Positions 9,735 through 38,071 of a DNA stretch of 38,073 bases are shown here, in pieces. How positions within the stretch are numbered: position 1 is the stretch's first letter; each line of letters begins with the position of its first letter. The notes below the pieces were generated by a model that was not told the DNA's origin, did no database searches, and was given only the letters and a program-made list of their open reading frames with translations. This stretch comes from Cyanobacteriota bacterium. Its GTDB lineage: Bacteria > Cyanobacteriota > Cyanobacteriia > PCC-6307 > Cyanobiaceae. Both the position numbers and the translations under genes were made by a program. Where the stretch lies: assembly GCA_046052125.1 (NCBI GenBank), contig JBJOMY010000010.1, forward strand, positions 1 through 38,073. Reading direction: 5' to 3'.

Positions 9735-11408
9735 TTGAGCAGCCCCGCCCATCGATACGACCCAGGGGCTGATCTGCGCTGGCTACTGCTGCGTCCCTGG
9801 CAGTTGATCGGTCGGCTCACGGTGCTGCTCAGCCAGCTGCTCTCCTTGGCGTTGGTGCTCGTCATCCAGGGCGGCAGTAACGATCCAAAGGTTCAACAGC
9901 GCCTGGGCAAGCGCATCTTCACCACCCTCACCAACCTGGGGCCCTGTTTCATCAAGCTCGGCCAGGCCCTCTCCACCCGCCCTGATCTGGTGCGGCGTGA
10001 CTGGCTCGATGAGCTCACCAAGCTCCAGGACAACCTGCCGGCCTTCCCCCACGCCATCGCGCTCCGCACGATCGAGGACGAGCTCGGGGCACCGGTGGAG
10101 CAGCTCTTTGAGGAGTTCCCTGATCACCCCGTCGCGGCCGCGAGCCTGGGACAGGTGTACCGGGCCAAGCCGGTGGGCGGCTCCTGGGTGGCGGTGAAAG
10201 TGCAGCGCCCCAAGCTCACCGAACAATTGCGCCGCGACATGGTGCTGATTCGCCTGTTGGGGGTGATCACAGCGCCGCTGCTCCCCCTCAACCTGGGCTT
10301 CGGGCTCGGCGACATCATTGATGAGTTCGGCCGATCCCTGTTCGAAGAGATCGACTACCGCCGCGAGGCCGATAACGCCGAACGCTTCGCGCGGCTGTTC
10401 GCCAACAACCCGGCCGTGATCGTGCCGCGGGTGGACCGCAGCCTCTCCGCCCAACGGGTGATCACCACCACCTGGATCAACGGCACCAAGCTGCAGCAAC
10501 GCCAGGAACTGGAGGCCCAACGCCTGGATCCGGCCTCGCTGATTCGCACCGGTGTGATCTCCGGCCTGCAGCAGCTGCTGGAATTCGGCTACTTCCACGC
10601 CGATCCCCACCCCGGCAACCTCTTTGCCCTGCCTGGCAAGACCGGTGCCATGGGCCATCTGGCCTATGTGGATTTCGGAATGATGGATTCGATCAGCGAC
10701 AGCGATCGCCTCACCCTCACAGGCGCCGTCGTTCACCTGATCAACCGCGACTTCGCTGCCCTGGCGCAGGACTTTGTTGCTCTGGGTTTTCTGAATCCCA
10801 GTACAGACCTGTCCCCGATCGTGCCGGCCCTGGAAGAGGTGCTCGGTGGTGCCCTGGGCGACAACGTGGGCTCCTTCAACTTCAAGGCGATCACCGATCG
10901 CTTCTCGGAGTTGATGTATGCCTACCCCTTCCGGGTGCCGGCGCGTTTTGCGCTGATCATCCGGGCGGTGGTGAGCCAGGAGGGTCTGGCGCTGCGGCTG
11001 GATCCGAGCTTCCGGATCATTCGCGTGGCCTACCCCTACGTGGCCCGCCGCTTGCTGGCGGGCGACACCGCTGAGATGCGCGAAAAATTGCTCGAGGTTC
11101 TGTTTGATCGCGAGGGGCGGCTGCAGCTCGAGCGCCTGGAAAACCTCCTGGCGGTGGTGGAGAACGACGAAGGTTCAGTTGGGCCAGAACTGCTGCCCGT
11201 TGCGGGTGCGGGTCTGAAGCTGCTGCTGGGCCAGGAGGGCCGCAGCCTGCGCCAGCGCCTGCTGCTCACCCTGGTGCGCGACGACCGTCTGAACACCGAA
11301 GACATTCGCGGCCTGTTTGAGCTATTGGGGCGCACTTTTGCTCCGCAGCGACTGGCGCGGCGCATGCGCGATCAATTGCTGACCCGGCTGAACCCCCTGG
11401 CCGCTTAG
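9735..11408 (+). CDS. ABC1/AarF/UbiB family atypical kinase
   Basis: LGPCFIKLGQALSTRPD, AAASLGQVY, VAVKVQRP, FHADPHPGN, DFGMM; start codon uncertain (TTG 9735 chosen). Confidence 0.92.
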   Translation: MSSPAHRYDPGADLRWLLLRPWQLIGRLTVLLSQLLSLALVLVIQGGSNDPKVQQRLGKRIFTTLTNLGPCFIKLGQALSTRPDLVRRDWLDELTKLQDNLPAFPHAIALRTIEDELGAPVEQLFEEFPDHPVAAASLGQVYRAKPVGGSWVAVKVQRPKLTEQLRRDMVLIRLLGVITAPLLPLNLGFGLGDIIDEFGRSLFEEIDYRREADNAERFARLFANNPAVIVPRVDRSLSAQRVITTTWINGTKLQQRQELEAQRLDPASLIRTGVISGLQQLLEFGYFHADPHPGNLFALPGKTGAMGHLAYVDFGMMDSISDSDRLTLTGAVVHLINRDFAALAQDFVALGFLNPSTDLSPIVPALEEVLGGALGDNVGSFNFKAITDRFSELMYAYPFRVPARFALIIRAVVSQEGLALRLDPSFRIIRVAYPYVARRLLAGDTAEMREKLLEVLFDREGRLQLERLENLLAVVENDEGSVGPELLPVAGAGLKLLLGQEGRSLRQRLLLTLVRDDRLNTEDIRGLFELLGRTFAPQRLARRMRDQLLTRLNPLAA

Positions 11409-11434
11409 GGTCGGCGCCACCTGAGCGCAGAGCG

Positions 11435-11902
11435 ATGTCACTGGCCCCGATCAACCTGAGCGAAGCCGCCCAGGACATGGCCAGCGGCGATTACGGCGAT
11501 CTGGATGCCCAGGAGATCTTCCTGGAATTCGCGCCCTATCTGCAGCCGCCCTACGTGCTGGCGGGCATCGGCCTGGCGATGGGCGTGCTCTGCGGGCTCA
11601 CCTTCGCCCGCCTGGTGCAGGAGAAGCTCAACGGCTGGAAGAAAGACCGCCTGGCCCTGCTGCCCCTCGGCTGCTTTGAAACCAACCTGAGCTACAGCGG
11701 CATCATCATCGGCATCACGCTGTTCATCGGCGGCAGCCTGCAGATCTTCGGTTTCGCGGCCGGTGCCGCGCTACTGGTGGCGCTGCTGCTGTCACTGGCC
11801 ACGGCCGGCGCCCTCTGGGTGCAGCTCGAGCGGCTGATGACCCAGGTGGAGAACGGCACGTTCAGCGCTGTCGACTTCGACAACTTCGACCAGTTCTTCT
11901 AA
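11435..11902 (+). CDS. Hypothetical membrane protein (3 TM)
   Basis: Three hydrophobic segments, acidic/aromatic C-terminus (VDFDNFDQFF); start may be 11477. Confidence 0.75.
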   Translation: MSLAPINLSEAAQDMASGDYGDLDAQEIFLEFAPYLQPPYVLAGIGLAMGVLCGLTFARLVQEKLNGWKKDRLALLPLGCFETNLSYSGIIIGITLFIGGSLQIFGFAAGAALLVALLLSLATAGALWVQLERLMTQVENGTFSAVDFDNFDQFF

Positions 11903-11905
11903 GGC

Positions 11906-12901
11906 TCAGGCCGCCAGATAGGCGCCCATCTCCCGGGAGAGACGGCGCATCTCTTCGTGGGCGCGGCGCTCGAGGCTGCGGGCCCGGTCGCGGCTCATCT
12001 CCAGCTCGCGGGCAATCGAACTGAGGCTCATCGGCTCCTCGATGCCAATGCCATAGCGCATCTTGAGCACGCGGCACTGCAGGTCCGGCAGCTGCTCGAG
12101 CAAGCACTGCATGTCGCTGCGCAGGCACTCCCCATCCACCAGCTCCTCGGGTTGAGTGCCTTCCGCTGCCAGCAGATCGAGCAGTTCGGTGTCGTCGCCA
12201 TCGCCCACCTTGGTTTCCAGGCTCACCGGCTGGCGGGCGCGGCAGAGCAGGTCTTTCACCTCCTCCTCCGGCAGTTCCACAAACTCCGCAAGCTCCGTGA
12301 CGGTGGGGGTGCGGCCCAGTTCCTGGCTCAGTTCCCGCTGGCCCTTCTTGAGCTTGTTCAGCGTTTCGGTGATGTGGATCGGCAGCCGGATCGTGCGGCT
12401 CTTTTCGGCAATCGCCCGGGTGATGCCCTGGCGGATCCACCAATAGGCGTAGGTGGAGAACTTGTAACCGCGGGTGGGATCGAACTTCTCAACACCCCGC
12501 ACCAGGCCGATCGTGCCTTCCTGGATCAGGTCCAGGAGTTCCATATTCCGCTTGGTGTATTTCTTCGCCACGCTCACCACCAAGCGAAGGTTGGCCGCCA
12601 CCATCCGCTCCTTGGCGCGCTGGCCGCTGCGCAACCGCTTCTTGAGCTGTTGGGGGGTGATGCCTGCCGCCTCGGCGAGCTCTTCATCGGTGGGATCGGT
12701 CCCACTGGCGCGGATCCTCAGCTCTTCGCGCTGCTCCTCGATCAGCATCAACTCCTGCACCTGGCGACCCAGGGTGATCTCCTGCTCATGGGAGAGCAGA
12801 GGCACCCGGCCAATGTCCCGCAGATAGGAGCGCACCAGATCGGTGCCGCCAACGAAGGCGGCTGCATCGCGATCGGAACGAAGCACCGGAAGCGAAGGCA
12901 T
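11906..12901 (-). CDS. RNA polymerase sigma-70 factor, cyanobacterial group 2 (RpoD/SigA family)
   Basis: [67 protein letters not shown]; no long region 1.1. Confidence 0.95.
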
Positions 12902-22696: not shown

Positions 22697-23554
22697 ATGG
22701 GGCGATCCATCCTGGCGGCGTGTATCGCGCTCTTGCTCTGCTGCGTGGGTAGCAAGGCGATCAGCGCACCTGAGGATCCGGATCTCACCAAGGCGCGAAC
22801 ACAGTTTGAAGCTGGGGATATCGTTGGCGCCATTGAACTCTGGAGTGGAAGGCTCATCCGCCAACCCGACCATCAATCAGCACGCTTTAATCGTGCCCAG
22901 GCTTACTTGGTGCTGGAGCAACATCAACTCGCCCTGGATGATCTCCAACAACTGCTATCGATTCAGCAAGGTCGGCCGATCGCAGAGGCCTACATCATGC
23001 GTGGCGTAGCGCTCACAGGGCTAGGCCGCCATCAGCAAGCCCTCGAGGATTTTGATACGGCCTGGCGGCTGGGCAAGAGCCCGACAGCACTCGCAAACAA
23101 AGCGATGACGCTCAACAGCCTGGGGCGACGATCTGAGGCTTATGCCCTGATGGAGCAGTTGGTGCAGATCGAAGCGAGCACGGCGAATTTCTTGAATCTC
23201 GCCAGCCTGCAAAAAAGCCAAGGCAACCCCGCAGCCTGCATTCAAACCACCAGCAGCATCATCCGCAGCACACCAACCCATGCACAGGCCTATGCCTTGC
23301 GTGGCCTCTGCAAAGAACAGCAGGGCCAATCGGAATCAGCCTTGGCTGATCTTTTGCGCAGCCAGTCGCTAGCCCCCCATCAACCGGACACACTGCTGGC
23401 GATCGGAACCATCCTACGAAAACGCGGCAAGCAGGAAGAAGGCACGCAGTGGATCCTCAAGGCCGCCAGCCTGTATTTGATCGACCGCAAACCCATTGAG
23501 CACAAGAATGCCCTGCAGGCCGCGCAGGCCACCAACCAAAACCCGAAGCACTAA
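22697..23554 (+). CDS. Exported tetratricopeptide-repeat protein
   Basis: Hydrophobic N-terminus; TPR units ARFNRAQAYLVL..ALDDL, AYIMRGVALTGLG..ALEDF, AYALRGLCKEQQG..ALADL. Confidence 0.85.
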   Translation: MGRSILAACIALLLCCVGSKAISAPEDPDLTKARTQFEAGDIVGAIELWSGRLIRQPDHQSARFNRAQAYLVLEQHQLALDDLQQLLSIQQGRPIAEAYIMRGVALTGLGRHQQALEDFDTAWRLGKSPTALANKAMTLNSLGRRSEAYALMEQLVQIEASTANFLNLASLQKSQGNPAACIQTTSSIIRSTPTHAQAYALRGLCKEQQGQSESALADLLRSQSLAPHQPDTLLAIGTILRKRGKQEEGTQWILKAASLYLIDRKPIEHKNALQAAQATNQNPKH

Positions 23555-24900
23555 AGCTTCTGCAAGCTATCCCAGAACGGAAGGATCTGCTGCGTGAAGA
23601 TGGCAATCACAGGCCGCTGGCGCAACACAACATTGGCATTAATCGACATCCCCGAGCGAAGAATCAAATCGCGCCCCTTATAGCGGAGAGCGCTGCGATT
23701 GAGATCAACAGTAACGGGGAAACGAAAGAAGTTGTAGGTTTGATCAGGGGCCAGCACATCCGAACCGATCGACTGAACACGCCCCTTGAGTTCACCGAAC
23801 TCGTTGTAAGGAAAAGCATCAACCCGCACATTCACCAGCTGTCCATTGCGTACAAAACCAATATCACGATTGGACACAAAGATGCGAGCCACCAGATGAT
23901 CGGTTGGCACGATCTTGAGGATCGGCACCTCGCTCTCCACCACAAAGCCAGGGGCTGTGGGCTTCAGGTCGAACACCAAACCGTTCACCGGCGACTTGAT
24001 CTCCTGATATTTCAACGTGAGCTCAGCCTCACTGATCTGGCTGGATAGCTCTGCCAATTGCTTTTCGCTCTCCTCCACCTTGGAGGAGAAGTCGATGCGG
24101 GTCATGGCCTCTGTGTTGGCGAGCTTCGACCTCGCCTCATCCAAGGCTTCACGGCTGCGATTGAGGTTGGAGCTCAGGCTGCGCACTTCGCCACGCAGCA
24201 GGATCACTTCCTGCTTTTCTTTCATGAACTGCGAGCGAGCCATGGCGCCCTGGGCCGTGAGGGGGGCAATATCCCGGAGAATCTGCTCGCGGATGGCAAG
24301 GGCCTCGCGCTTGGAGCTGAGTTGATAGCGCGCCGCATCCAGGTTGGATTGGGCCTGCATCACGCCGCTGCGGGCGGCTGACACACGCGAGGCATATTCC
24401 GAACGCAGCGCCGCCAACTTGCCGGCCTGGTTGGCGGAAAGCTGGGTTCGATCCACCACGGCACCAAGCTGACCACGGCTGAGCTGCAGATCCGCTTCCA
24501 CCCGCTCCCGCACAGCCTTAAGCGCTTTGAGCTTGGATTTCACGGCGGTGGTGTCCATTTCCAGGAGCACCTGGCCAGCGCGCACCGATTGGCCATCCTT
24601 CACCAAAATATCGAGCACAACGCCACCCATGGGCGCCTTCACATCCTTCGTGGTGCCCTTCGGCTCCAGCTTGCCTGTGGCTTGCACCGTTTCATCAATG
24701 CGTGCAAACGACGACCAAACAATCCCGAAGCCCGCCACACCCACAAGGGTCCAGATGATCCAGGAACTCCAGCGACGGCTCGGCTGCAGAGCCGTCCAGT
24801 GCCGTTGGCCCTTCTCCTCAGTGATCCGATGAACAACTTTGTCGCCGGCCCGCTGGAGAGCCGGAAGGGCCCGATGCTCGATCCAACGCTTTAGATCCAT
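23551..24900 (-). CDS. HlyD family type I secretion membrane fusion protein
   Basis: TM then IDETVQATGKLEP, VKAPMGGVV..ILVKDGQSV, long coiled coil, IKSPVNGLV, DIGFV..GQ.V.VRVDAFPYNEFGEL.G.V..IGSD, LRSGM. Confidence 0.93.
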   Translation of the reverse strand: MDLKRWIEHRALPALQRAGDKVVHRITEEKGQRHWTALQPSRRWSSWIIWTLVGVAGFGIVWSSFARIDETVQATGKLEPKGTTKDVKAPMGGVVLDILVKDGQSVRAGQVLLEMDTTAVKSKLKALKAVRERVEADLQLSRGQLGAVVDRTQLSANQAGKLAALRSEYASRVSAARSGVMQAQSNLDAARYQLSSKREALAIREQILRDIAPLTAQGAMARSQFMKEKQEVILLRGEVRSLSSNLNRSREALDEARSKLANTEAMTRIDFSSKVEESEKQLAELSSQISEAELTLKYQEIKSPVNGLVFDLKPTAPGFVVESEVPILKIVPTDHLVARIFVSNRDIGFVRNGQLVNVRVDAFPYNEFGELKGRVQSIGSDVLAPDQTYNFFRFPVTVDLNRSALRYKGRDLILRSGMSINANVVLRQRPVIAIFTQQILPFWDSLQKL

Positions 24901-27542
24901 TGAAACGCGTTCTGGTACTGCGTTTGGCTGATCAAACCACTGCCAACGCCGGCTGCGAAGCCCCACTGCATCAGCGAGATCCCCTCAAAATGCGCGATTG
25001 CGTCTTCACCGCGATACAGCCAACTCTCCGATGTTGGTGCCGGTGAGAGTGATGACGCCAATGCAGCCGGTGCATCCCCCAGCCAATAACTGGTGCCGGG
25101 ATCCAGGCTAGACAAAGGCTGCAGCTCCACCGAATCCTTCGTCAAATCAAAGCTCTGTATCCAGGCATAGCTTAAAGAGTTCGAATAGCACAAGCCACCC
25201 TCTTGGCCACTCAGCACGAAGCGATCTGCACCGTCACCACCCACCAAACGATCCACTTCGCCAACGCTGTTCCCATCGGAGCCCACCAATCTGGAGCCGC
25301 CGGAGCCGGCCATCAACACGTCCGATCCGCCCCGACCGATCAACTGATCCATGCCGGTTCCTCCGGCCAACCAGTCGTTCTGAAGACCGCCGATCAACAG
25401 ATCGTTGCCGGCCTGGCCCCAGAGGCGATTGCCTTGATCCTGGCAACCGATAATTCGGTCATCACCGGCGCCACCCTGCACCGACCGCGCCACAGCCCCT
25501 GAGGTGCCGTATTGATAGGTCGCCCCACCGGCGGGCAACCACACTTGCTCCATCAGAGCCTGGTCGAGCGTGAAGCGACCGATGGCCTGCCCCATCGCCA
25601 GACCGGTGATGTTGTCGAAGGAGAAGTGAATCCCTCCATAGATGCGGCTCAGGCCCGACTCCTCAGCGGCCTGCATCAACGAGGTGTAGGAACGCGTGAT
25701 CTCCCGCTGGTTACCGCCAACAATGGTGAAGGTCTGGGCATCGCCCAGCAGTTGACCAGCCACGGCCGCTGCGGCTGCCGAGAAGGTGCTGTGGCCCGAG
25801 GGGAAGGAGGGGAAGGGAGGCGTGCTGATCAGAGGTAACCAGCCCGGATCAGCCACGGTTTCTGGATTGCCGTCGCGATCGGCTTGCTGAATCGCCGTAA
25901 CAGGACGCCAGAAGGCCGGGTCATACTTCACATCCCAGGCTGCAATCCCGGCGTCCGCCAACGCCATGCCAACCGCCGCATAGAGGCGCACGCTGGCCAG
26001 CAGATTGAGTTGCTGCTGTTCGGCAATGGTGGAAACGATGCTTTGCCAATGGCCGGGCGGTGTTTCCGTGCCAGCTCCGTTCGCCCAGAACTGGGCAATC
26101 TCTCCCTGTTCCGCTGAGCGCAAGCTGCTGGTGCTCGAACCCAGCTGCTTCACCTGCGCAAAGGCCTCGGCATAGGCCGCGGAATTGAGCGCGGGCAGGC
26201 CAGGAATCAGCGGATTGAGCCCAGGGGTGGCCTGGGTAATCGAACCCCTGATCCAGGGATCAGCATCTCCCCAATCCGGCAACGAAGCCGGCATGGGGAA
26301 GGCGGCACTGGTGGGCAGATAGGCACCGGCAACAGCCTTGAGAGGGTCAGGGGGGGCATAACTGGTGCTGCCCAGCAAGTTGCGATCACTCGCACGCAGG
26401 GTGAGCAGCGCTGTAGCGGCCTCACGGCCCAGTACGTCGCCGCGGAGGGTGTCGGGAATGGGGAGAGCCCGAGCGAGGAACTGCTCGGCTGTGGTGACCG
26501 CCGTGGTGGCGTAGCTGCGGCCTTGAAACACCTCCGCCAACACCAAACCAGCTGCCCGTGCCATCGCCACGGAGAGATCCGAACCGCTCCAACGCTGGGG
26601 ATCAGCCTGGATGGCATACCCCGCGTAGGGAGAACCCTGGGCGGCGTTCACCACGTCGTAGAGGGCTGTGTTGAGCAGGGCCAAAGCACGCGCCACGAGG
26701 GGAGGCGGAAGCTTTTCGGCCGCCACACCATCCAGGAGCAGGCGATTCCAAAAGGTGAGGTCCTGCAGATGCGGGTCGATCTGGGAGCGACCATCCACCA
26801 CGATCGTGGTTTGCGCTCCCAGCCCCGCGGCAACCGATGCGGGAACAGCAGAGTTGCCCGCATACAACTGGCGCGATGCCAACCCCAACACACTGCCGCC
26901 ATTGAGCTGCAGGGGGCGCTCCGCCAACAAAGCCAGATCCTGAGCCCGATCACCGGGGCGCACCACGTAGGAGAACCGAAGCTCGCGGCTACCGCTGCCG
27001 CCGATCAAACGGGCCTGCGCCACGCCGCCCTGAAGCGCCAGGGCCAGGGTTGGCGCCCCGCGCACCAACACCGCTTCCGAAAACTGAAGCCGCAGGTCGA
27101 TCACATCACCCACGCGGTAGGTGCGGTTGCGGCTGCCGCAGCGCACACTCAGCAGCTGGGGAGGCTGACTGAGCGATGGGAGGGGAGCGGTTGTTTGCGC
27201 TAATGAACCTGGCTGGGAGCCGGTGGGGAGAGCCAGTGGGCTGAGCTGGCCTTGCAACTGGAGCGTGCAGCCCGGCACTAGATCCAGCTGAGCGATCGCA
27301 TCACCCGAGCGCATGGTGTAGGTGAACAGCACCTGCCGAGAGCCATCTCCGCTCAGATAGCGAGCCATGGCCGGGGAACCACCCAGGTTGAGCGGCAACG
27401 CCTGCCGGGACGCCAGGCGCACGGGCTCGTCAAAGTCGAGCGCCAGCACCAGCACGGAGCCAACCCGGAGCGGCGCGGCCAATGGATCGGGCCAAAGCCG
27501 CCGCACTGCCTGGATCCGTGTGGTTAGCGCAGAGGTCACCAC
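24891..27542 (-). CDS. Vanadium-dependent haloperoxidase (PAP2 superfamily) with two N-terminal Ig-like repeats and C-terminal RTX Ca2+-binding repeats
   Basis: Vanadate-site motifs KYDPAFWRP, TPPFPSFPSGHS, SRIYGGIHF; GGxGxD-like nonapeptides (GGAGDDRII, GQAGNDLLI, GGTGMDQLI, GGDGADRFV); two adhesin-type repeats (FSEAV..G.PTL.L....A....GSGS..L.F.Y.V..GD). Confidence 0.85.
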   Translation of the reverse strand: MVTSALTTRIQAVRRLWPDPLAAPLRVGSVLVLALDFDEPVRLASRQALPLNLGGSPAMARYLSGDGSRQVLFTYTMRSGDAIAQLDLVPGCTLQLQGQLSPLALPTGSQPGSLAQTTAPLPSLSQPPQLLSVRCGSRNRTYRVGDVIDLRLQFSEAVLVRGAPTLALALQGGVAQARLIGGSGSRELRFSYVVRPGDRAQDLALLAERPLQLNGGSVLGLASRQLYAGNSAVPASVAAGLGAQTTIVVDGRSQIDPHLQDLTFWNRLLLDGVAAEKLPPPLVARALALLNTALYDVVNAAQGSPYAGYAIQADPQRWSGSDLSVAMARAAGLVLAEVFQGRSYATTAVTTAEQFLARALPIPDTLRGDVLGREAATALLTLRASDRNLLGSTSYAPPDPLKAVAGAYLPTSAAFPMPASLPDWGDADPWIRGSITQATPGLNPLIPGLPALNSAAYAEAFAQVKQLGSSTSSLRSAEQGEIAQFWANGAGTETPPGHWQSIVSTIAEQQQLNLLASVRLYAAVGMALADAGIAAWDVKYDPAFWRPVTAIQQADRDGNPETVADPGWLPLISTPPFPSFPSGHSTFSAAAAAVAGQLLGDAQTFTIVGGNQREITRSYTSLMQAAEESGLSRIYGGIHFSFDNITGLAMGQAIGRFTLDQALMEQVWLPAGGATYQYGTSGAVARSVQGGAGDDRIIGCQDQGNRLWGQAGNDLLIGGLQNDWLAGGTGMDQLIGRGGSDVLMAGSGGSRLVGSDGNSVGEVDRLVGGDGADRFVLSGQEGGLCYSNSLSYAWIQSFDLTKDSVELQPLSSLDPGTSYWLGDAPAALASSLSPAPTSESWLYRGEDAIAHFEGISLMQWGFAAGVGSGLISQTQYQNAFQWI

Positions 27543-27642
27543 GGCGCAGGCCTAATCAGGGGCCTTGGACATTAAGGATCTTGCGAAGACGCTGCCACGA
27601 AGGAAGCATCCTTCGCATCAATCCAGATAACGGCTATCAGGC

Positions 27643-28761
27643 TCAGACCAAGGGCATCTTCATCACCAACACGCGAAGCAGACCCTCCAGCAGCACCAAA
27701 CCCAGCACAATCCCTGCACTCCAACGCACGAAACGCAGACGCCGCCGCTGCTGACGGGGCAAACGCAACGGGAGGCCCGCCTGACTCTGGAGCCTGCGCA
27801 ATGCCGCCAATTTCAGCTCAACACTCACCAGGTTCACAATCGACACCACCAAGGCTGTGCCGCTCAACAGCAGGCGAGGCCAGAGGCCCATGCCGATCAC
27901 TTTGTAAAAGGGCAGCACGGCCGCCAGGATCGAACCCAAGCCCAATGCCAAGGCCAGAGGCGACACCAACACCATGGCCACGCAGGGGATCGCCAGCAGT
28001 GCGGCCAACAAACCAACGATCTGCGTGAGCCAAGACGAGAACCGCGAAGCGTTCAGGCGCAACTCACGCACACCACTGATGGCCGAGCTCGGGGCCCTCA
28101 CAATGCGCGGTTCCAGCGAAGCGGGGTCGGAGCCGGCGGGCCAACGCACCAGGGCCTGCGTGGGCGGATCCAGCACCATGGCCCCCTCCGGAGCCTCGGC
28201 CAGGAGCCCGGGCAACGCATCCAGGGATGTGGAGTAGGGATAACTGCCGCAGGGATCGTCGGTTTCGAGCAGCTCCCCATATCCACTCACAATCGCGGCC
28301 GCCACAGGCAGCTGCAGCGCCAGGGTGGCCTGCTCATCACGCACGCTGCGCAGCAAGGCTTGGCCAACATCCAAGGCGCGCTGGGCAGGGTTGTCGACGG
28401 CAACGGGAAGGTTGAAGAAGGCTCTGAATTCCAACCAGGCAGCGTCGGAACTGCGATGGGGCGGCACGAAGCCGCCCAGCAGCTGAGCTTCTTGGCGCAG
28501 ACGCTGCAGCAGGGCCGTGGCCTCCGGCTCAGTGGCCGGCACCGGGTGATCGTTTAACCAGAAGCTGCGCCGCAGGCGCAACTGCAGGGTGCTCACCTGG
28601 CTGATCTGGCCGGCCAGCAGATGAGCCTGGCAACGGTTGCAGAGGTTGGGCTGGGTGCGGGAGCGGGCAATCCCCAACAGCTTCGAGACGCCAGCCAACG
28701 GACCCGCCAGGGGCACGGAGCAGGCCAGGCAGCGGTCGGATAGGGGCAGAGAACGCGTCAT
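27643..28761 (-). CDS. Degenerate class III nucleotide cyclase-like membrane protein with N-terminal Cys4 motif
   Basis: CLAC..PNLCNRC; cyclase-fold remnants (RAFFNLPV..DNPAQRAL, LPVAAAIVSG, AEAPEGAMVLD); 3-4 C-terminal TM helices. Confidence 0.65.
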   Translation of the reverse strand: MTRSLPLSDRCLACSVPLAGPLAGVSKLLGIARSRTQPNLCNRCQAHLLAGQISQVSTLQLRLRRSFWLNDHPVPATEPEATALLQRLRQEAQLLGGFVPPHRSSDAAWLEFRAFFNLPVAVDNPAQRALDVGQALLRSVRDEQATLALQLPVAAAIVSGYGELLETDDPCGSYPYSTSLDALPGLLAEAPEGAMVLDPPTQALVRWPAGSDPASLEPRIVRAPSSAISGVRELRLNASRFSSWLTQIVGLLAALLAIPCVAMVLVSPLALALGLGSILAAVLPFYKVIGMGLWPRLLLSGTALVVSIVNLVSVELKLAALRRLQSQAGLPLRLPRQQRRRLRFVRWSAGIVLGLVLLEGLLRVLVMKMPLV

Positions 28762-28775
28762 CGGAACCAGCGAGA

Positions 28776-29690
28776 TCAGGAGGAGAGCTTGGTGTTGGTT
28801 TGATAAGCGGCATGCACGACACGGATCAACTCCTGCAACCGCGGTTCACGGGCAAGCGCCAGGGGAAAGATGAGCAGGTCTTGGTCGATCAGGCCGGTGC
28901 TGAGGTTGAGGGGAGAGATCTGCAGATCAGGATGAATCGTCTGAGCGAACGCCACCGCACGGGCTGTGGATGGCACAACCGTGGCTTGATCCTCCACCAA
29001 CGATTCCCAGGCCCCCGGCTGCAAAAACTTATCCGTCACAGGCTGATTCCATAGATTCAACCGTGTGCATTCCTGAGCGTAAACGCTATCGGCATCCACG
29101 GCCAAGGCAGGGGATGGATACGCCTTCAGATCGTGCCAATCAACGTTGGCCTGACGCTGCAGCGGATGATTGGGATCGCTATAGAGCAGAACGGGATCTT
29201 CACTGAGGGCCAAGATCCCGTAGGGATCACAGGCCTGAGGGCGTGACAACGGCAAGGTGGTTGTTACCCCCAGTGCTGCTGCCAGATCCAAACGCGAGCC
29301 GAGCAGAGCATCGAGCAGCCCCTGCTCCAACAGAGCTAGGGAATGACGGGCGGAGAGCCAGCGCTTGGGGAGCGGCTGCACGAGCTCGGATGGCAACCGC
29401 AGCTGGCCGGCCTCAGCCCACGGCTCCGCGACCAGACGCAGACGCCCGCCCTCCCGGGCACGGAGACGCTGAGCCACGGCGCGCAGGTCGCGCTGCACAT
29501 CAAGATTGCGCGCGGCCTGATAAACCCCGTCGCGTTTTTCCAAGTCGAGGTTGAGAATCTTGGCGCAGGCCCTGGCGCCCCGATAGGCGTTGCTCTGGGC
29601 GATCCCACACACCTCCCCCACCACGTGGGAACTGCCATAAACCTCGAGCAGATCGAGGTAGAGCAAGCCCTCGGAAAAGAGATCCCGCAT
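28776..29690 (-). CDS. LysR-like transcriptional regulator (picocyanobacterial type)
   Basis: N-terminal HTH LDLLEVYGSSHVVGEVCGIAQSNAYR; LALLEQGLLDALL and HPL....V...DL..YPSPAL resemble a LysR substrate-binding domain; ~304 aa. Confidence 0.72.
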   Translation of the reverse strand: MRDLFSEGLLYLDLLEVYGSSHVVGEVCGIAQSNAYRGARACAKILNLDLEKRDGVYQAARNLDVQRDLRAVAQRLRAREGGRLRLVAEPWAEAGQLRLPSELVQPLPKRWLSARHSLALLEQGLLDALLGSRLDLAAALGVTTTLPLSRPQACDPYGILALSEDPVLLYSDPNHPLQRQANVDWHDLKAYPSPALAVDADSVYAQECTRLNLWNQPVTDKFLQPGAWESLVEDQATVVPSTARAVAFAQTIHPDLQISPLNLSTGLIDQDLLIFPLALAREPRLQELIRVVHAAYQTNTKLSS

Positions 29691-29778
29691 AGGCACCACC
29701 TTATGCGAGAAGCGACTCAGACCCTTGCCAAAAGCGGACGATCACCTTGCAGAATCTGCATTCCACGAAGCCTTGACA

Positions 29779-30371
29779 ATGGCCGCTCGAGCATGGCGGA
29801 GAGCACTGCAATCCATGCTCCCCAGAAATCGAAATAACCGAGTTTCGGATAACAGCCTCTGTCTGAGAGTTGATCAGCTGGCTGCTGTCTGGCCGTTTCA
29901 CATCGTGATCCGGGATGGTGATGTCAACCGAATCGGTCCTGCTTTAAAGAAATGCCTGGGTCACCGCGACGCGGTGGGGGCAACGCTGCCCAGCCTGCTG
30001 GCGATCACCGCACCGGATGATCTGGCTGCGCTGAACTGGAAGCAGCCGGAACCGCTGCTGGATCGGCCTCTGGAACTCTCCACGCCATCAGGGCTGTGCT
30101 TCAGCGGCGAGCTGCAACCGTTGCAGGGCGATGGGTGGCTGCTGATTTTGCAACCGATCGCCCAATCGATCCGCGACCTGCACCGCTACGGACTGACGCT
30201 GCAAGACCTCAGCCTCAGCGATCCCCTGCGCCACCATGTGTTGCCCTCACTGCTGAACGAGGGACTGCAAGACATGCTGCTGCAGGAAGCAAGCCTGGCG
30301 AAGGAGGAGCTGGGTGAGGCCGCGATTGAACGGGCCTGGCTTGATCTGGGGCTGGAAGCAGGCCCGCAGCC

Positions 30372-30375
<4 letters not shown>
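29779..30375 (+). CDS. Stand-alone HNOBA/H-NOXA (soluble guanylate cyclase PAS-like) domain protein
   Basis: WPFHIVI...VNRIGPALKK, ITAP, LCFSGEL, LLILQP...IRDLHRYGLTLQDLSLSDPL parallels the HNOBA consensus FPFH..F.....I.Q.G..L...L.L.GQM....FL.SP....L.DL...GL.L.D...HD; start uncertain (29779 or 29815). Confidence 0.72.
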
Positions 30376-33330
<2,955 letters not shown>

Positions 33331-33338
<8 letters not shown>

Positions 33339-34173
33339 GGCCAAACAAGGAGCGCAGCAATCCCGGCTTGGCCCCAGCCTCGAGGGCGTCGCCGGGCGGC
33401 AATTCGGTAATGGATTGGGGTGCCGAGCCACTGTCAGAGGGAGCCAGCTGCAGCTGAGCCAGCGCGGCGGACACCTGCTCGCGCATCCAGAGCTCATACA
33501 TCTCATCGCGCAAGCGCTGACGCATGGGCTCGTCGAGCTGGGCTGGCCAGTGGCGCTCATGGCGCAGGATCACCCACCAACCCTCCGCCTCAAAGGGGGG
33601 CCACAGCTGCCCGGGGGTGGAGATGCGCAAACGTTCGGCCAGCACGGGATTGATGCGGCCGAGCTCCATGGGGCCAATCAAGCCATTGAGCTGCTGCTCC
33701 ACCCCTTCTGAATAAATCGAGGCGAGGTCGGCAAAGGTGTCTTCCTCTTCCTCGAGGCGCAGGTGGAGCTCTGCAGCTTTGCCACGCTCACGGGTGCGAA
33801 GCAGCGAATAGCTCACGCGGTCGAGATTGGATTTGCGTTCGAGGAAAAGGGGTTCCACCCGCGGACCGAAGGTGGCGTCCTTGAACATCTCGAGCTGCAA
33901 CGCCTGGAAAAGACGCAAACTCATCTGGGGCTCGCTGATCCCCTGGTGCTCCAGCCAAGCCGTGAGACTGACCTGGTCGGTGATGTGCTCACGGGCCAAG
34001 AAGGCCTGCTGAAAAGCCACCTGCTGCTCATGGGTTGGGGCATGAGCCACTGCATGGCTGCGCTCGAGATGACGCCGAAGCAATAACGGCATCAGGTCGA
34101 GTTCGTGCAACAGAGCCGGAAGCTGCTCCAGGGGGATGGAATCCCCAGCGAGCAACAGGGTTGGCAGAACCAT
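33331..34173 (-). CDS. PpiC/parvulin-type peptidylprolyl isomerase associated with cyanobacterial T1SS
   Basis: FLERKSNLDRVSYSLLR, ELHLRLEE.E.TFADLA..YSEG.E...NGLIGP, PGQLWPP..WWVILR.E...PAQLD. Confidence 0.85.
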
Positions 34174-34228: not shown

Positions 34229-37200
34229 TCAGCCCAAGCCAAGGGCTGCCTTATTGGCATTGGTCACAAGACCAGCACTGGCAGCTGTATTGAGGTCTCC
34301 CAAGGAAACCCCAACGATTTCAGCCAGAGAGGCGACATTCATCTTGGTGTTCTCAACGGAAGCGTTCTTAGCCAAGGAGCCACTGTTGTAGTAACCGGAG
34401 TAGAGATAAGCAGACGTCACTGTTGGGTCTGTGGATGACTGGCCGTAGAGCACATAGGTGAAGTCAATGGCGGCGTCCTTACCGACACCAGCAGTTGCAG
34501 AACTGGAACCAGCGCCAGCACCAAACTCAATCAGACTCGCAATCTGTCCACGGACGAAAGAGACATCCTTGGCCTGAGCGGCAGTGACACTGCCAGCCAG
34601 AACATCCTCATACAGCTTGCCATCAGTCAATCGCAGAGCGAGGGAAGTTGTACTTTCGGTGACTTCGATAGCGGTACTAACAACACTGGTGGCCCCATAG
34701 AACAGGCCAAGCTTGTCCTGTACAGCCCCACCGGCAATCATATTGAATCCGGTGATCGTATTGAAAGCAAACGCCGTTTCACCTGTAGCACGGCCTCCAT
34801 CTGCGTTGAAGGTGGTGTAGGTGGTGGAAGCCCCAACATTAAAGATCAGCGAGTCGCCAGTGTTATCAGCCCCACCGAAAGTAGCCGTGACATTCTTGGA
34901 GTTGGTAAGCGCTGTGGACAGCTGAACCACATTGGCGCCTGCATCCCCATTCAGAGTGACCGCCGTGATGCTGCCGATGGCATCAACTTTGGCGTTACCG
35001 AAGTCAACGGTGCTGCCGGTAATGGTTGCATCATCCACACCAGTGATCGTGGTTGCTGCTTTGAGAATGGAGGACGATGCAGCCGTGAGATTGGCGGCTG
35101 TATCACTCAGGGAGTAAGTGAGTGCCCCAGTGCCATTATTGGCATCAATCGTGGCTACTTGAGCAACCGTTGCCGAGCCAGTGTTCACGTTGACATCCAC
35201 ATCGGTCTTGGTGTCGATCGTGGTGGCCGAAATGGCGGTGGCGATGGCCGCCGCCGTACCGGTCAGGGCTCCAACCTGGGTGGCGTTGACGCTGACGGTT
35301 GTCTTGGCATCCAGCTGGTTGAGCTTGGCGGCATCCAAGGTCGCGTCGTTCACCGTCAGGGTGTAGGCATTGCCGTTGCCCGTGAGGCCAAGCAGGGTGT
35401 CTGCCGCTCCGGTGGCGATCGTGGCGGTGACCACACCGGTTGTATCGGCATCCACCGTGTTGGCATCAGCAACGGACACCGTTGCATCCGTCAGGGTCGC
35501 GGCGTAGTCGGTCCTAGTGGTGATGCCATCGGCAGCGATCACTGTCTTCACATCAGCCACAAGGCCCTGGATCGTCGTCGCCGAGGTCGCATCCACCGCC
35601 ACAGTTGTCTTGCCATCCAGCGTGTTCAGCGCTGTGGCATCGACTGTCGTGTCGTTGATCGTCAAGGTGTAAGCATTGACGCCGTCAGTGAGCGCACTCA
35701 GGGCAGCCGCTGTTCCGGTCGTGATTGTGGCTGTGACCACACCATTGGTGCGGCCATCGACGGTGTTGGCATCCGCCACCGACACCGAGGTGTCGGTCAG
35801 GGTGACCTTGTGGTCGGCGGCCCTAGTGATCGACGCCGAGCCTGTGGCTGTCAGCACAGCAGCGGCCAGGCCGGTGATGGTGGTCACCGCCGCAGCATCG
35901 ACGGTTGCTGTGGTGTTGGCGTCGATCGTGTTGAGATCGGTCGCCGCTGCCGTCCCGGCATCCACCGTCACGCCCACATCGGCCTTGGTGTCGATCGTGT
36001 TGGCCGAGATGGCGGTGGCGATCGCCGCCGCTGTACCTGTGAGGGTGCCGACCTGGTTCGCGTCGACCTTGACGGCGGTCTTGCCATCCAGCGTGTTGAG
36101 CTTGGCGGCATCCACCGTGACGTCGGTCACCGTGAGGGTGAGCGCCGCATTGGCTGCACCGGTGAGTGCCAACAAGGCATCAGCCGTCGCCGCTGGAATC
36201 GTGGCGGTGACCACACCCGTGGTGTTGGCCACCATCGTGTTGGCCTGAGTCACGCTGGCTGTTCCAACCGTGACGGTGGCGGCCACGTTGGCAGCGGTGT
36301 CAATCGTGGTAGCCGTCAACACCTCAGCGATGTCAGCCGCATTGCCGGTGATGGTGGTCACAGCTGCGGCATTGACCGGCGCCGTCGTGTTGGCGTCGAT
36401 CGTGTTGAGGTCAGTCGCCGCTGCCGAACCGGCATTCACGGTCACACCCACATCGGCCTTGGTGTCGATCGTGGTGGCCGAAATGGCGGTGGCGATGGCC
36501 GCCGCCGTACCGGTCAGGGCTCCAACCTGGGTGGCGTTGACGCTGACGGTTGTCTTGGCATCCAGCTGGTTGAGCTTGGCGGCATCCAAGGTCGCGTCGT
36601 TCACCGTCAGGGTGTAGGCATTGCCGTTGCCCGTGAGGCCAAGCAGGGTGTCTGCCGCTCCGGTGGCGATCGTGGCGGTGACCACACCGGTTGTATCGGC
36701 ATCCACCGTGTTGGCATCAGCAACGGACACCGTTGCATCCGTCAGGGTCGCGGCGTAGTCGGTCCTAGTGGTGATGCCATCGGCAGCGATCACTGTCTTC
36801 ACATCAGCCACAAGGCCCTGGATCGTCGTCGCCGAGGTCGCATCCACCGCCACAGTTGTCTTGCCATCCAGCGTGTTCAGCGCTGTGGCATCGACTGTCG
36901 TGTCGTTGATCGTCAAGGTGTAAGCATTGACGCCGTCAGTGAGCGCACTCAGGGCAGCCGCTGTTCCGGTCGTGATTGTGGCTGTGACCACACCATTGGT
37001 GCGGCCATCGACGGTGTTGGCATCCGCCACCGACACCGAGGTGTCGGTCAGGGTGACCTTGTGGTCGGCGGCCCTAGTGATCGACGCCGAGCCTGTGGCT
37101 GTCAGCACAGCAGCGGCCAGGCCGGTGATGGTGGTCACCGCCGCAGCATCGACGGTTGCTGTGGTGTTGGCGTCGATCGTGTTGAGATCGGTCGCCGCTG

Positions 37201-38071
37201 CCGTCCCGGCATCCACCGTCACGCCCACATCGGCCTTGGTGTCGATCGTGTTGGCCGAGATGGCGGTGGCGATCGCCGCCGCTGTACCTGTGAGGGTGCC
37301 GACCTGGTTCGCGTCGACCTTGACGGCGGTCTTGCCATCCAGCGTGTTGAGCTTGGCGGCATCCACCGTGACGTCGGTCACCGTGAGGGTGAGCGCCGCA
37401 TTGGCTGCACCGGTGAGTGCCAACAAGGCATCAGCCGTCGCCGCTGGAATCGTGGCGGTGACCACACCCGTGGTGTTGGCCACCATCGTGTTGGCCTGAG
37501 TCACGCTGGCTGTTCCAACCGTGACGGTGGCGGCCACGTTGGCAGCGGTGTCAATCGTGGTAGCCGTCAACACCTCAGCGATGTCAGCCGCATTGCCGGT
37601 GATGGTGGTGATGCTGGTGGCATCCACGTTGGCCTCGGTGGCCGCATCCATGGCCTTGAGATCGCTGGCCAGAGCCGTCGGTCCGACCACCACAACCAAC
37701 GTGTTGGCGGTGGTGGTGCTGTTGCCGGCCACATCAGTCACCGTGGCACGGAAGCGGTAGGTGCCATCGGCACGGGCGGCAGCCGCAGGGTCTGCCACAA
37801 CAGTCCAGGCCCCACCATTGAGGCTCTGCTCGTAAACGACCGTGGCACCAGCCTCCTGGGGAGGGAGGGTGAGCGGGAAGGCCGTGGCGTTGTTCGTGAT
37901 CTTGTAGGTGGTGCCGTCGATGGTGAGGGTGCCGGTGGTGGGGGCTGTCTGATCAACCGTGATCGCATCGGCATTGCCGTCGCCAACGATCTTGTTGCCT
38001 GCCTTATCGGTCTGCTCAATCTTGATCTTGCCGGCGGCATAGGTGCCTTCCGCCAGATCAAAGCTGGTGCC
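34229..38071 (-). CDS. Giant repetitive Ala/Thr/Val/Asp-rich surface protein with bacterial Ig-like domains, probable T1SS substrate (5' end outside window)
   Basis: The frame of the 1189-aa ORF stays open from 37798 to the edge (GTSFDLAEGTYAAGKIKIEQTDKAGN..ITVDQTAP..DGTYRFRATVTDVAGN, Big-type); ~50-55 aa solenoid-like modules; C-terminal FNTITGF...DKLGL resembles T1SS cargo tails; no Cys in the visible part. Confidence 0.85.
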   Translation of the reverse strand, partial: GTSFDLAEGTYAAGKIKIEQTDKAGNKIVGDGNADAITVDQTAPTTGTLTIDGTTYKITNNATAFPLTLPPQEAGATVVYEQSLNGGAWTVVADPAAAARADGTYRFRATVTDVAGNSTTTANTLVVVVGPTALASDLKAMDAATEANVDATSITTITGNAADIAEVLTATTIDTAANVAATVTVGTASVTQANTMVANTTGVVTATIPAATADALLALTGAANAALTLTVTDVTVDAAKLNTLDGKTAVKVDANQVGTLTGTAAAIATAISANTIDTKADVGVTVDAGTAAATDLNTIDANTTATVDAAAVTTITGLAAAVLTATGSASITRAADHKVTLTDTSVSVADANTVDGRTNGVVTATITTGTAAALSALTDGVNAYTLTINDTTVDATALNTLDGKTTVAVDATSATTIQGLVADVKTVIAADGITTRTDYAATLTDATVSVADANTVDADTTGVVTATIATGAADTLLGLTGNGNAYTLTVNDATLDAAKLNQLDAKTTVSVNATQVGALTGTAAAIATAISATTIDTKADVGVTVNAGSAAATDLNTIDANTTAPVNAAAVTTITGNAADIAEVLTATTIDTAANVAATVTVGTASVTQANTMVANTTGVVTATIPAATADALLALTGAANAALTLTVTDVTVDAAKLNTLDGKTAVKVDANQVGTLTGTAAAIATAISANTIDTKADVGVTVDAGTAAATDLNTIDANTTATVDAAAVTTITGLAAAVLTATGSASITRAADHKVTLTDTSVSVADANTVDGRTNGVVTATITTGTAAALSALTDGVNAYTLTINDTTVDATALNTLDGKTTVAVDATSATTIQGLVADVKTVIAADGITTRTDYAATLTDATVSVADANTVDADTTGVVTATIATGAADTLLGLTGNGNAYTLTVNDATLDAAKLNQLDAKTTVSVNATQVGALTGTAAAIATAISATTIDTKTDVDVNVNTGSATVAQVATIDANNGTGALTYSLSDTAANLTAASSSILKAATTITGVDDATITGSTVDFGNAKVDAIGSITAVTLNGDAGANVVQLSTALTNSKNVTATFGGADNTGDSLIFNVGASTTYTTFNADGGRATGETAFAFNTITGFNMIAGGAVQDKLGLFYGATSVVSTAIEVTESTTSLALRLTDGKLYEDVLAGSVTAAQAKDVSFVRGQIASLIEFGAGAGSSSATAGVGKDAAIDFTYVLYGQSSTDPTVTSAYLYSGYYNSGSLAKNASVENTKMNVASLAEIVGVSLGDLNTAASAGLVTNANKAALGLG
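35207..37609. repeat. Two apparently identical ~1152-bp direct repeats (35207-36358 and 36458-37609), period 1251 bp
   Basis: Shadow ORFs 35676-36248 and 36927-37499 translate identically; DNA spot checks match at offset 1251; matching breaks at 35206/36457 and 36359/37610. Confidence 0.92.

Follow-up and report, generated by a model that had tools for sequence, protein, structure and literature searches.

A probable class III pseudo-cyclase with a Cys4 module and a membrane domain in a picocyanobacterial haloperoxidase-like locus

We analyzed a window of 38,073 nucleotides (nt) from a Cyanobacteriota bacterium of the family Cyanobiaceae (GenBank assembly GCA_046052125.1, contig JBJOMY010000010.1, positions 1 to 38,073) and concentrated on one gene on its minus strand, 27643..28761, whose product is referred to here as P0001. 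P0001 is very probably a pseudo-cyclase, i.e., a catalytically dead descendant of adenylate cyclases that combine a zinc-ribbon-like module, a cyclase domain, and a membrane domain. On a modest balance of probability, the best overall explanation is that this dead membrane cyclase serves as a signaling or scaffold subunit, together with an HNOBA protein encoded nearby, in a haloperoxidase operon.

Domain structure and lost catalytic residues of P0001

The open reading frame (ORF) of P0001 is intact and real, and every motif that an earlier note on this DNA had read in it by eye is in place. That note had proposed an otherwise intact ORF that joins a Cys4 module to a dead class III cyclase fold and a membrane domain; this structural reading held up against fold matches, profile homology, a residue table, and ratios of nonsynonymous to synonymous substitution (dN/dS). 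The parts are listed below, with model confidence as predicted local distance difference test (pLDDT) values and with L005 denoting the locus of an orthologue at 72% identity.

27643..28761, minus strand: pseudo-cyclase gene encoding P0001, 372 amino acids (aa) plus stop, ATG start (ORF list and translation)
28603..28761, minus strand: Cys4 (+His47) zinc-ribbon-like module, residues 1-53 (conserved in 27/27 sequences; pLDDT 76-85; dN/dS 0.084 versus L005)
28147..28602, minus strand: class III cyclase homology domain, very probably dead, residues 54-205 (Foldseek, VIA-align, hhalign, residue table, dN/dS 0.116)
28042..28146, minus strand: variable linker, residues 206-240 (pLDDT <50; 15/34 aa identical and dN/dS ~1.07 versus L005)
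27646..28041, minus strand: membrane domain, three to four hydrophobic helices, residues 241-372 (hydropathy, AlphaFold2 model of the domain alone, dN/dS 0.090)

P0001 has nine relatives at 37-84% identity, in addition to the window's own shorter gene call. A Pfam scan returned nothing significant for it (best match Thioredoxin_13, E 0.063) and no PF00211 (Guanylate_cyc) match at E ≤ 1, and an NCBIfam scan was equally silent (best match a LEPR-8K fragment, E 0.049). The Thioredoxin_13 and LEPR-8K matches were dismissed as noise. With both libraries silent, the cyclase call is therefore not obtainable from standard annotation. The only matches of a profile search against PDB sequences were ferredoxins (E 0.17 and 3.1); these were set aside as a similarity in Cys spacing.

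The fold itself gave a clear answer. An AlphaFold2 model built on alignment A1 (ten close relatives) had a mean pLDDT of 69.6, with residues 40-160 at 85-94 and a poorly modeled linker and membrane part. Searched against the PDB with Foldseek, a check that the earlier note had proposed, this model matched a class III nucleotidyl cyclase in every row listed (E 4.3e-7 to 8e-5; TM score by target 0.54-0.63 for single-domain chains; identity 8-16%). These matches include the rhodopsin-guanylyl cyclase 5oyh, Cya2 (2w01), CyaC (1wc0-1wc5), CyaB (3r5g), soluble guanylate cyclase (sGC), and mammalian adenylate cyclase. A search independent of Foldseek, VIA-align over 48,161 representative chains, gave the first 24 ranks to entries with the cyclase fold (Z 16.0-10.5; 132-165 aligned residues; root-mean-square deviation [rmsd] 3.0-4.1) over a model range of ~50-231, and GGDEF domains appeared only from Z 9.9. 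As modeled, residues ~50-231 of P0001 have the fold of a class III cyclase homology domain.

Profile searches connected P0001 to proteins that carry this domain in recognizable form. An exhaustive search with A1 retrieved 103 proteins at E ≤ 0.001, 41 of which were covered by a Pfam scan. The Guanylate_cyc gathering score of 21.9 bits is reached by 34 of the 41, and P0066, P0086, and P0112 match below that score only. No Guanylate_cyc match was found by Pfam for the members of the window's clade (P0012-P0017, at E ≤ 0.1) or for the fragment P0020. Full matchers include many proteins of ~375 aa that align to the query from end to end. The canonical relatives are named "adenylate cyclase" or "class 3 adenylate cyclase" in their source records, and one of them comes from Verrucomicrobiota. 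Aligned profile to profile with hhalign, A1 (the close clade) and A3 (15 canonical relatives) matched over 355 columns at 100% probability (E 4.4e-40), and tblastn of P0001 matched 13 of 14 canonical loci at E 2e-8 to 2e-20. By sequence, P0001 belongs to an unnamed family with a CxxC-x26-CxxC-xx-H module, a cyclase-fold domain, and a C-terminal membrane domain that holds a Pro-Cys and a Glu. The Cys4 module would bind zinc, and no Pfam zinc-ribbon family matched it in P0001.

To compare the catalytic residues, we tabulated a MAFFT alignment of 27 sequences, 15 canonical and 12 from the window's clade. The canonical members keep both metal-binding Asp, the Asn, the Arg, R157, and a membrane His (H365) in 15/15 cases; the base-specifying Lys is present in 13/15, and its companion position is Thr or Ser in 15/15. 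In the window's clade, the first metal Asp is left in 1/12 members, the second in 4/12, the Arg in 3/12, and the Asn in none (0/12). Hence, four of the six canonical catalytic or specificity positions are replaced in all, or all but one, of the clade members, and the other two survive in 3/12 and 4/12, with replacements that differ among members. Two further changes are uniform within the clade: Glu163 replaces a family-invariant Arg (G-x-A-R-x-G) in 12/12, and Arg363 replaces the membrane His, four residues after an invariant Glu, in 12/12 versus His in 15/15 canonical members. Meanwhile, C11, C14, C41, C44, H47, C260, and E359 are invariant in 27/27 sequences, far beyond chance.

These losses can be read position by position in P0001, where the earlier note's motif assignments proved accurate under both MAFFT and hhalign. 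The motif QVSTLQLRLRRS (residues 55-66) maps to the "FADL" strand, with R62 (28578-28576) in the column of the first metal Asp. The "KfiGD" motif is indeed unrecognizable: "DKyiGD" of the relatives is replaced by "PPHRSSD", which puts P101 in the Lys column and, by MAFFT, S105 in the column of the second metal Asp. SLDALPGL (residues 179-186) corresponds to "VNlAaRL", with D181 (28221-28219) in the Asn column and G185 (28209-28207) in the Arg column. Y174 occupies the Thr column, and E163 the column of the family-invariant Arg. The Cys pairs are retained, as the note had said, and are read directly as CLAC (residues 11-14; 28731-28720) and CNRC (residues 41-44; 28641-28630), followed by His47 (codon 28623-28621). 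In a maximum-likelihood tree of 34 proteins (midpoint root only), the 15 dead-clade rows form one side of a 100/100 branch, which fits a single loss of catalysis.

The membrane domain has hydrophobic stretches at 241-288 (48 residues), 297-318, and 347-368. Modeled alone with AlphaFold2 on 34 sequences (pLDDT 73.3), it is predicted to form helices at 229-257, 259-273, 276-288, 293-328, and 336-367, and hydropathy and model together are compatible with three or four membrane spans. The first helix of the model is broken at I258/P259, the site of the invariant Pro-Cys: I258-P259-C260 (27990-27982) lies inside the first hydrophobic stretch, with P259-C260 (27987-27982) at the helix break. E359 (27687-27685) and R363 (27675-27673) lie near the C-terminus, which reads MKMPL, and a loop at 318-350 holds nine Arg/Lys and the Arg-rich motif LRLPxxQRRR. 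In the active relatives, the Cys/Glu/His triad could be a metal or ligand site within the membrane. Foldseek of the domain model against the PDB gave nothing at E ≤ 0.001, its single row being TMEM16A at E 5.4. The earlier note had likened the intramembrane IPC to Mer-type metal transport helices, a reading that is not supported and that we do not adopt: P0001 has no MerT match at E ≤ 1, a single Cys, and no fold match in the PDB. A MerT match was seen in only 1 of the 41 relatives (P0019, E 0.0063, over the whole membrane part) and at 17 bits against a cut-off of 32.9. The "IPC" cysteine is common to the whole family, active members included, and is not Mer specific.

We next asked how the gene evolves, using Nei-Gojobori dN/dS on codon alignments of orthologues from genome contigs. 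For the window paired with L005, the whole gene gives a dN/dS of 0.144; the Cys4 module stands at 0.084, the cyclase-like domain at 0.116, the membrane domain at 0.090, and the 35-residue linker at 1.07. For L006 paired with L007, the values are 0.140 for the whole gene and 0.145 for the cyclase-like domain. Because synonymous sites are near saturation (proportion of synonymous differences 0.66-0.72), these ratios are rough, and the linker at ~1 provides an internal control for the low values in the other three domains. On these codon comparisons, another check suggested in the earlier note, the gene is under purifying selection and not in neutral decay. In three of the four RNA-library runs compared (X16, X17, and X19; three studies), contigs with ≥95% identity span parts of the gene. 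DNA carry-over is possible in such libraries, so that this coverage is a hint of expression only, and gaps in it (e.g., 28107-28308) carry no weight as evidence.

The conserved locus and the HNOBA protein

Five genes around the pseudo-cyclase gene make up its immediate context.

28776..29699, minus strand: LysR-like gene, 307 aa, 14 nt upstream of the pseudo-cyclase gene (weak LysR_substrate match, E 0.011; ESM Atlas)
29725..30375, plus strand: stand-alone HNOBA (sGC PAS-like) protein, 216 aa (PF07701, E 3e-7, 30.6 bits against a cut-off of 23.4)
30372..33560, minus strand: HlyB-type permease/ATPase (ABC exporter) of a type I secretion system (T1SS), with an N-terminal cyclic-nucleotide-monophosphate (cNMP)-binding-like domain (TIGR01846, E 2.8e-215)
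24891..27542, minus strand: RTX exoprotein with a vanadium-haloperoxidase-like PAP2 domain, 883 aa (Pfam PAP2, E 2.5e-12, and RTX repeats)
23551..24966, minus strand: HlyD-type T1SS adaptor (TIGR01843, E 6.4e-71, above cut-off; Pfam HlyD_3)

The order along the minus strand is exporter, LysR-like gene, 14 nt, pseudo-cyclase gene, a 100-nt gap, RTX gene, and HlyD; the HNOBA gene is divergent from this operon and lies between the exporter and the LysR-like gene. The HNOBA protein has no HNOB or cyclase domain of its own, and its HNOBA motifs align to sGC beta-1. The LysR-like assignment draws on an ESM Atlas feature score of 0.98 and on structural similarity (TM score 0.64-0.87) to LysR-type clusters. 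Vanadium haloperoxidases lead the PDB sequence matches of the RTX protein (4cit, E 1.6e-25; 1vne, E 2.4e-13), in which the PAP2 motifs KxxxxxxRP, PSGH, and SRxxxxxHxxxD are readable. The adjacent HlyB/HlyD system probably exports this protein.

Much of this arrangement recurs in other carriers. The LysR-like, pseudo-cyclase, and haloperoxidase-RTX genes are syntenic in L005-L008, with pseudo-cyclase identity down to 37%. The LysR-like gene also stands upstream of the pseudo-cyclase gene in L009, which then ends, too soon for the RTX gene to be scored (the RTX match lies downstream in L005-L008), and in which the deletion variant described below matches at ~50%. Matches to both HlyD and the ABC exporter were found in L005, L006, and L008, and an ABC match in L009. 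L010, a distant member from Cyanobium (33%), has neither the LysR-like gene nor secretion genes, and carries a divergent HNOBA gene upstream (PF07701, E 1.8e-11). In L010, we also noted a GGDEF-EAL gene downstream of the pseudo-cyclase gene (10627-12633, plus strand; EAL, E 4e-61), a cyclic di-GMP context rather than a secretion context. The record of L006 is titled Planctomycetes bacterium TMED75, has the same picocyanobacterial gene order, and encodes HlyD and ABC proteins 64-77% identical to the window's; the bin label may not apply to this contig.

Among all neighbors, the HNOBA gene is the constant one. It is adjacent in 7/7 informative loci, i.e., those with flanking DNA on the HNOBA side (the window, L005, L006, L008, L009, L010, and L092); L007 and L094 start ~200 nt before the LysR-like gene and are unscorable. 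A hidden Markov model of the HNOBA proteins found nothing in 80 metagenome loci of canonical and other cyclases (0/80). We then predicted a complex of P0001 residues 1-225 with the HNOBA protein. The score was weak: a median of 0.32 over three runs (0.53, 0.00, and 0.32), against 0.00 for the best of three controls. Of 157 solved complexes, 116 reach the mark set for this score, as do 2 of 215 mismatched pairs; only 18 of the 157 complexes, along with both passing mismatches, reach it at 0.60 or under. The runs share at least 1% of their contacts, and partner pLDDT is at least 64. The link to the HNOBA protein, which the earlier note had singled out for a pull-down, thus gains from constant adjacency and from this weak score. 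We regard the HNOBA protein as the most likely direct partner of the pseudo-cyclase, at somewhat short of an even chance.

The surroundings of the canonical relatives offered no comparable constancy. Among fourteen neighboring ORFs in seven of their loci, nothing recurrent stood out, with an AI-2E transporter and a metallo-beta-lactamase each appearing twice. They give no clue to the family's input signal, and tblastn of the window's neighbors on L011-L024 produced one generic ABC ATPase match only.

Several other features of the locus were recorded. The 100-nt spacer (27543-27642, minus strand) pairs into a long, imperfect hairpin (-43.3 kcal/mol, z -2.3; equaled by 3 of 200 shuffles), which could be a processing or attenuation element; neither a promoter-like nor a terminator-like site turned up when 27300-30500 was scanned, and the spacer has no terminator-like T-run. 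Residues 1-260 of the RTX exoprotein look internally repeated. The exporter carries an N-terminal extension of ~350 aa, of which the first ~95 ORF residues are Cys-rich and unmatched in L005 (tblastn alignment from residue 97), so that translation probably begins at a later codon. Two further genes precede the exporter, a PpiC-type rotamase-like one (33331-34173, minus strand; weak TIGR04500 match, 33 bits against a cut-off of 180) and a 1189-aa ORF (34229-37798, minus strand) with no Pfam or NCBIfam match. Both are matched in L005, and the 1189-aa protein may be a second secretion substrate.

Proposed role and competing explanations

Our preferred reading runs as follows. One picocyanobacterial branch of the family lost the metal Asp pair, the Asn, the Arg, and the base-specifying Lys and Thr, and exchanged the family Arg for Glu163 and the membrane His for Arg363, while keeping the fold, the Cys4+His module, Cys260, and Glu359. 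P0001 would then be a membrane-anchored, non-enzymatic signaling or scaffold subunit that acts by protein contacts, and P0001 and the HNOBA protein together might form a split, enzyme-less counterpart of the HNOBA-cyclase arrangement of sGC. In this lineage, the pair would share an operon with the LysR-like regulator and the type-I-secreted, vanadium-haloperoxidase-like RTX protein, and its output would be control of haloperoxidase expression or export, possibly via oxidant or thiol chemistry at the conserved Cys.

We grade the parts of this reading separately. The pseudo-cyclase probably signals or scaffolds instead of making cAMP. That it controls the haloperoxidase/T1SS locus is a tentative proposal, on the doubtful side. 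Sensing of redox state, hypohalous acid, or metal through the Cys, as the earlier note had suggested, is plausible in that it fits the genomic context; the LysR-type HypT and the zinc-Cys4 protein Hsp33 both respond to hypochlorite. A fully specified mechanism is a good deal more speculative: the PAS-like HNOBA protein would dock on a dead membrane cyclase dimer, the Cys4 module and the membrane Cys would read an oxidant (hypohalous acid or H2O2) or thiol/zinc chemistry, and the signal would pass by protein contacts, in place of cAMP, to the LysR-like regulator and/or the cNMP-domain exporter, tuning haloperoxidase production and export. If true, this would be a second-messenger pathway without the messenger, its wiring kept.

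The earlier note had also offered a regulatory partner of an active cyclase encoded elsewhere, and this option is disfavored. Searches for PF00211 at E ≤ 0.01 gave 0 matches in G000, the window's own genome (99.96% complete), and none in five other carrier genomes (62-99% complete), whereas the same search does find matches in 4 of 14 control genomes. The canonical-family profile A3 found only the pseudo-cyclase gene in G000. A whole-genome search of G000 returned no class I cyclase and no HNOB domain; its one CYTH domain is uninformative, since 11 of the 14 control genomes give a CYTH match as well. The window's own HNOBA gene escaped the whole-genome Pfam search, which is insensitive to weak domains, but a canonical cyclase scoring 45-100 bits should still show in it. 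The locus holds three modules typical of cyclic-nucleotide signaling, and no nucleotide source was found.

Several points weigh against our reading. First, hhalign, unlike MAFFT, puts D106 of P0001 at the second metal-Asp column (D106 is present in only 4/9 close relatives), and the clade member P0012 has an Asp at both metal columns; the probable loss of cAMP synthesis by P0001 is read from its residues. Second, the conserved Cys are common to active relatives and are older than the loss of catalysis; they were thus not acquired for haloperoxidase-related sensing. Third, the gene is rare, occurring in 5 of 301 family genomes and 2 of 64 genera, with 3 of 37 genomes in the genus (G000 included). 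Fourth, the deletion in L009 implies that the protein may do without its dead domain and may have its functional core in the membrane part. To these are added the limits already given for the dN/dS values, for the whole-genome search, and for the HNOBA complex score, with one of its three runs at 0.00.

The deletion variant itself (L009, 2799-3530, plus strand) is a 243-aa, in-frame protein without most of the cyclase-like domain and with the Cys4 and membrane parts kept. It is otherwise near-identical to the full-length P0010, which has 12 member sequences, and it is either a natural deletion allele or an assembly artifact of a metagenome-assembled genome (MAG).

This variant supports a rival explanation that places the functional core in the membrane domain, as a small transporter or sensor working through Cys260, Glu359, and Arg363 that may move a metal, an oxyanion, or an oxidant for the haloperoxidase, with the dead cyclase domain left as a remnant of structural or regulatory use. 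No other part of the protein is as well conserved as the membrane domain (82% identity and the dN/dS of 0.090 versus L005), which has an invariant PC motif, Glu359, Arg363, LRLPxxQRRR, and MKMPL terminus. The L009 variant keeps this part in frame with the Cys4 module, and the canonical relative P0019 has its weak MerT match over the whole membrane part. However, the cyclase-like domain is also under purifying selection (0.116-0.145) and has clade-invariant residues of its own (G160 and E163); the MerT match is isolated and sub-threshold, with the single Cys of P0001 standing against the MerT Cys pair and with no PDB match by Foldseek; and L009 comes from one fragmented MAG (86% complete). We consider this rival improbable, though worth keeping in view.

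A second rival makes P0001 an accessory subunit of the T1SS, docked on HlyD or on the exporter's cNMP-like domain, that gates the RTX haloperoxidase's export. It would act in the manner of LapD, a degenerate GGDEF-EAL protein that controls an RTX adhesin, and the LapD GGDEF-EAL structure 3pjx is among the fold neighbors of P0001 (Z 9.2). The gene sits within a conserved T1SS locus, between regulator and substrate. The exporter's cNMP-binding-like domain (25.3 bits, below the Pfam cut-off of 27.5) lacks, by comparison with CRP-family chains, the conserved Glu and Arg of the phosphate-binding cassette. According to PMC10986499, the corresponding domain of HetC, a related cyanobacterial exporter, gained no thermal protection from cAMP in vitro and bound ppGpp instead (Kd 59 µM). 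Against this rival, P0001 has minimal periplasmic exposure as modeled, and L010 keeps the HNOBA gene without a nearby T1SS, HlyD, or haloperoxidase, which makes the T1SS link lineage specific and the HNOBA link constant. We judge the accessory role unlikely.

Continued activity of P0001 as a nucleotidyl cyclase, or as some other enzyme that uses nucleotides, through non-canonical residues is very unlikely. The fold is intact, with pLDDT 85-94 over residues 40-160, and acidic residues lie near the former site (D106 in the window, the invariant E163, and Asp or Glu at 181 in 7/12 clade members). On the other side stand the near-complete replacement of four of the six catalytic and specificity positions in the clade, the Arg at the first metal position of P0001, the lack of a Pfam cyclase match at E ≤ 1, and the presence among the fold matches of 6yii (Z 11.4), by its entry title a cyclase-like "ATP-binding protein". 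Finally, a decaying relic without function, as the lost catalytic residues, the patchy distribution (5/301), and the internal deletion in one MAG might suggest, can be dismissed as highly improbable given full-length ORFs intact down to 31% identity, dN/dS of 0.08-0.15 in three domains versus ~1 in the linker, clade-invariant residues, conserved synteny, and the RNA-library contigs that cover the gene.

Comparison with known systems

Dead signaling enzymes are well known, e.g., GGDEF/EAL domains and one half of eukaryotic cyclases, and the degenerate site of heterodimeric cyclases is an example of a pseudo-enzyme with the class III fold; 6yii is another, going by its entry title. To our knowledge, bacterial class III pseudo-cyclases with a defined, conserved partner set are scarcely described. 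In literature listings and abstracts, we found no description of the zinc-ribbon/cyclase/membrane family, of its dead picocyanobacterial branch, or of the pairing with a stand-alone HNOBA protein. PMC4886424 concerns a different, cytosolic cyclase-like family (DUF2652).

The family offers a clean natural experiment, with active and dead sister groups that share one architecture. The constant stand-alone HNOBA partner would make the HNOBA-cyclase interface testable outside animal sGC. In freshwater picocyanobacteria, P0001 may help to control a secreted haloperoxidase, and this would bear on halogen chemistry and on oxidant-based competition. The parent family is itself uncharacterized, and its zinc-ribbon cyclases with a Cys/Glu/His membrane domain may hold a new input domain for cAMP signaling.

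The nearest known proteins are the ~375-aa "adenylate cyclase" relatives (e.g., P0026, P0021, and P0034), which share with P0001 the architecture, the length, a full-length alignment, Cys4+His47, the membrane Pro-Cys, Glu359, and an FFN-P motif. They differ in having a PF00211 match and, in 15/15, all catalytic residues and the membrane His, which are lost in the window's clade, and their 14 loci have unrelated contexts with no HNOBA, T1SS, or haloperoxidase gene nearby.

MerT (PF02411) resembles P0001 in that each has a small membrane domain whose first hydrophobic helix holds a Cys and whose cytoplasmic loop is basic. MerT has a Cys pair in its first membrane helix, whereas P0001 has a single Cys (A-x-P-C) and no mer context.

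Among solved class III cyclases, CyaB of P. aeruginosa (3r5g), Cya2 of Synechocystis (2w01), CyaC of Spirulina (1wc1), and Rv1625c of M. tuberculosis (4p2f/7yzi) have the same fold (Z 15-16; 156-165 residues; rmsd 3.0-3.8) at 6-15% identity, and P0001 is without their two metal Asp, their Asn and Arg, and their specificity residues. P0001 has its membrane anchor at the C-terminus, unlike Rv1625c, whose anchor is N-terminal and has six helices. The Pseudomonas aeruginosa entry 6yii, titled "Class III adenylyl cyclase-like ATP-binding protein" and compared here by that title, shares the fold over 157 residues (Z 11.4) but is soluble, has two domains in 473 residues, and lacks both a zinc ribbon and a membrane domain.

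A parallel for the pairing is sGC (HNOB - HNOBA - coiled coil - cyclase), in which, as here, an HNOBA/PAS module goes together with a class III fold module; sGC chains are among the fold matches of P0001 (3uvj, Z 14.3; 6pas, Z 10.5). Unlike in sGC, the modules at this locus are separate polypeptides with genes on opposite strands, a search of the genome found no HNOB domain, and the cyclase is membrane anchored and very probably dead.

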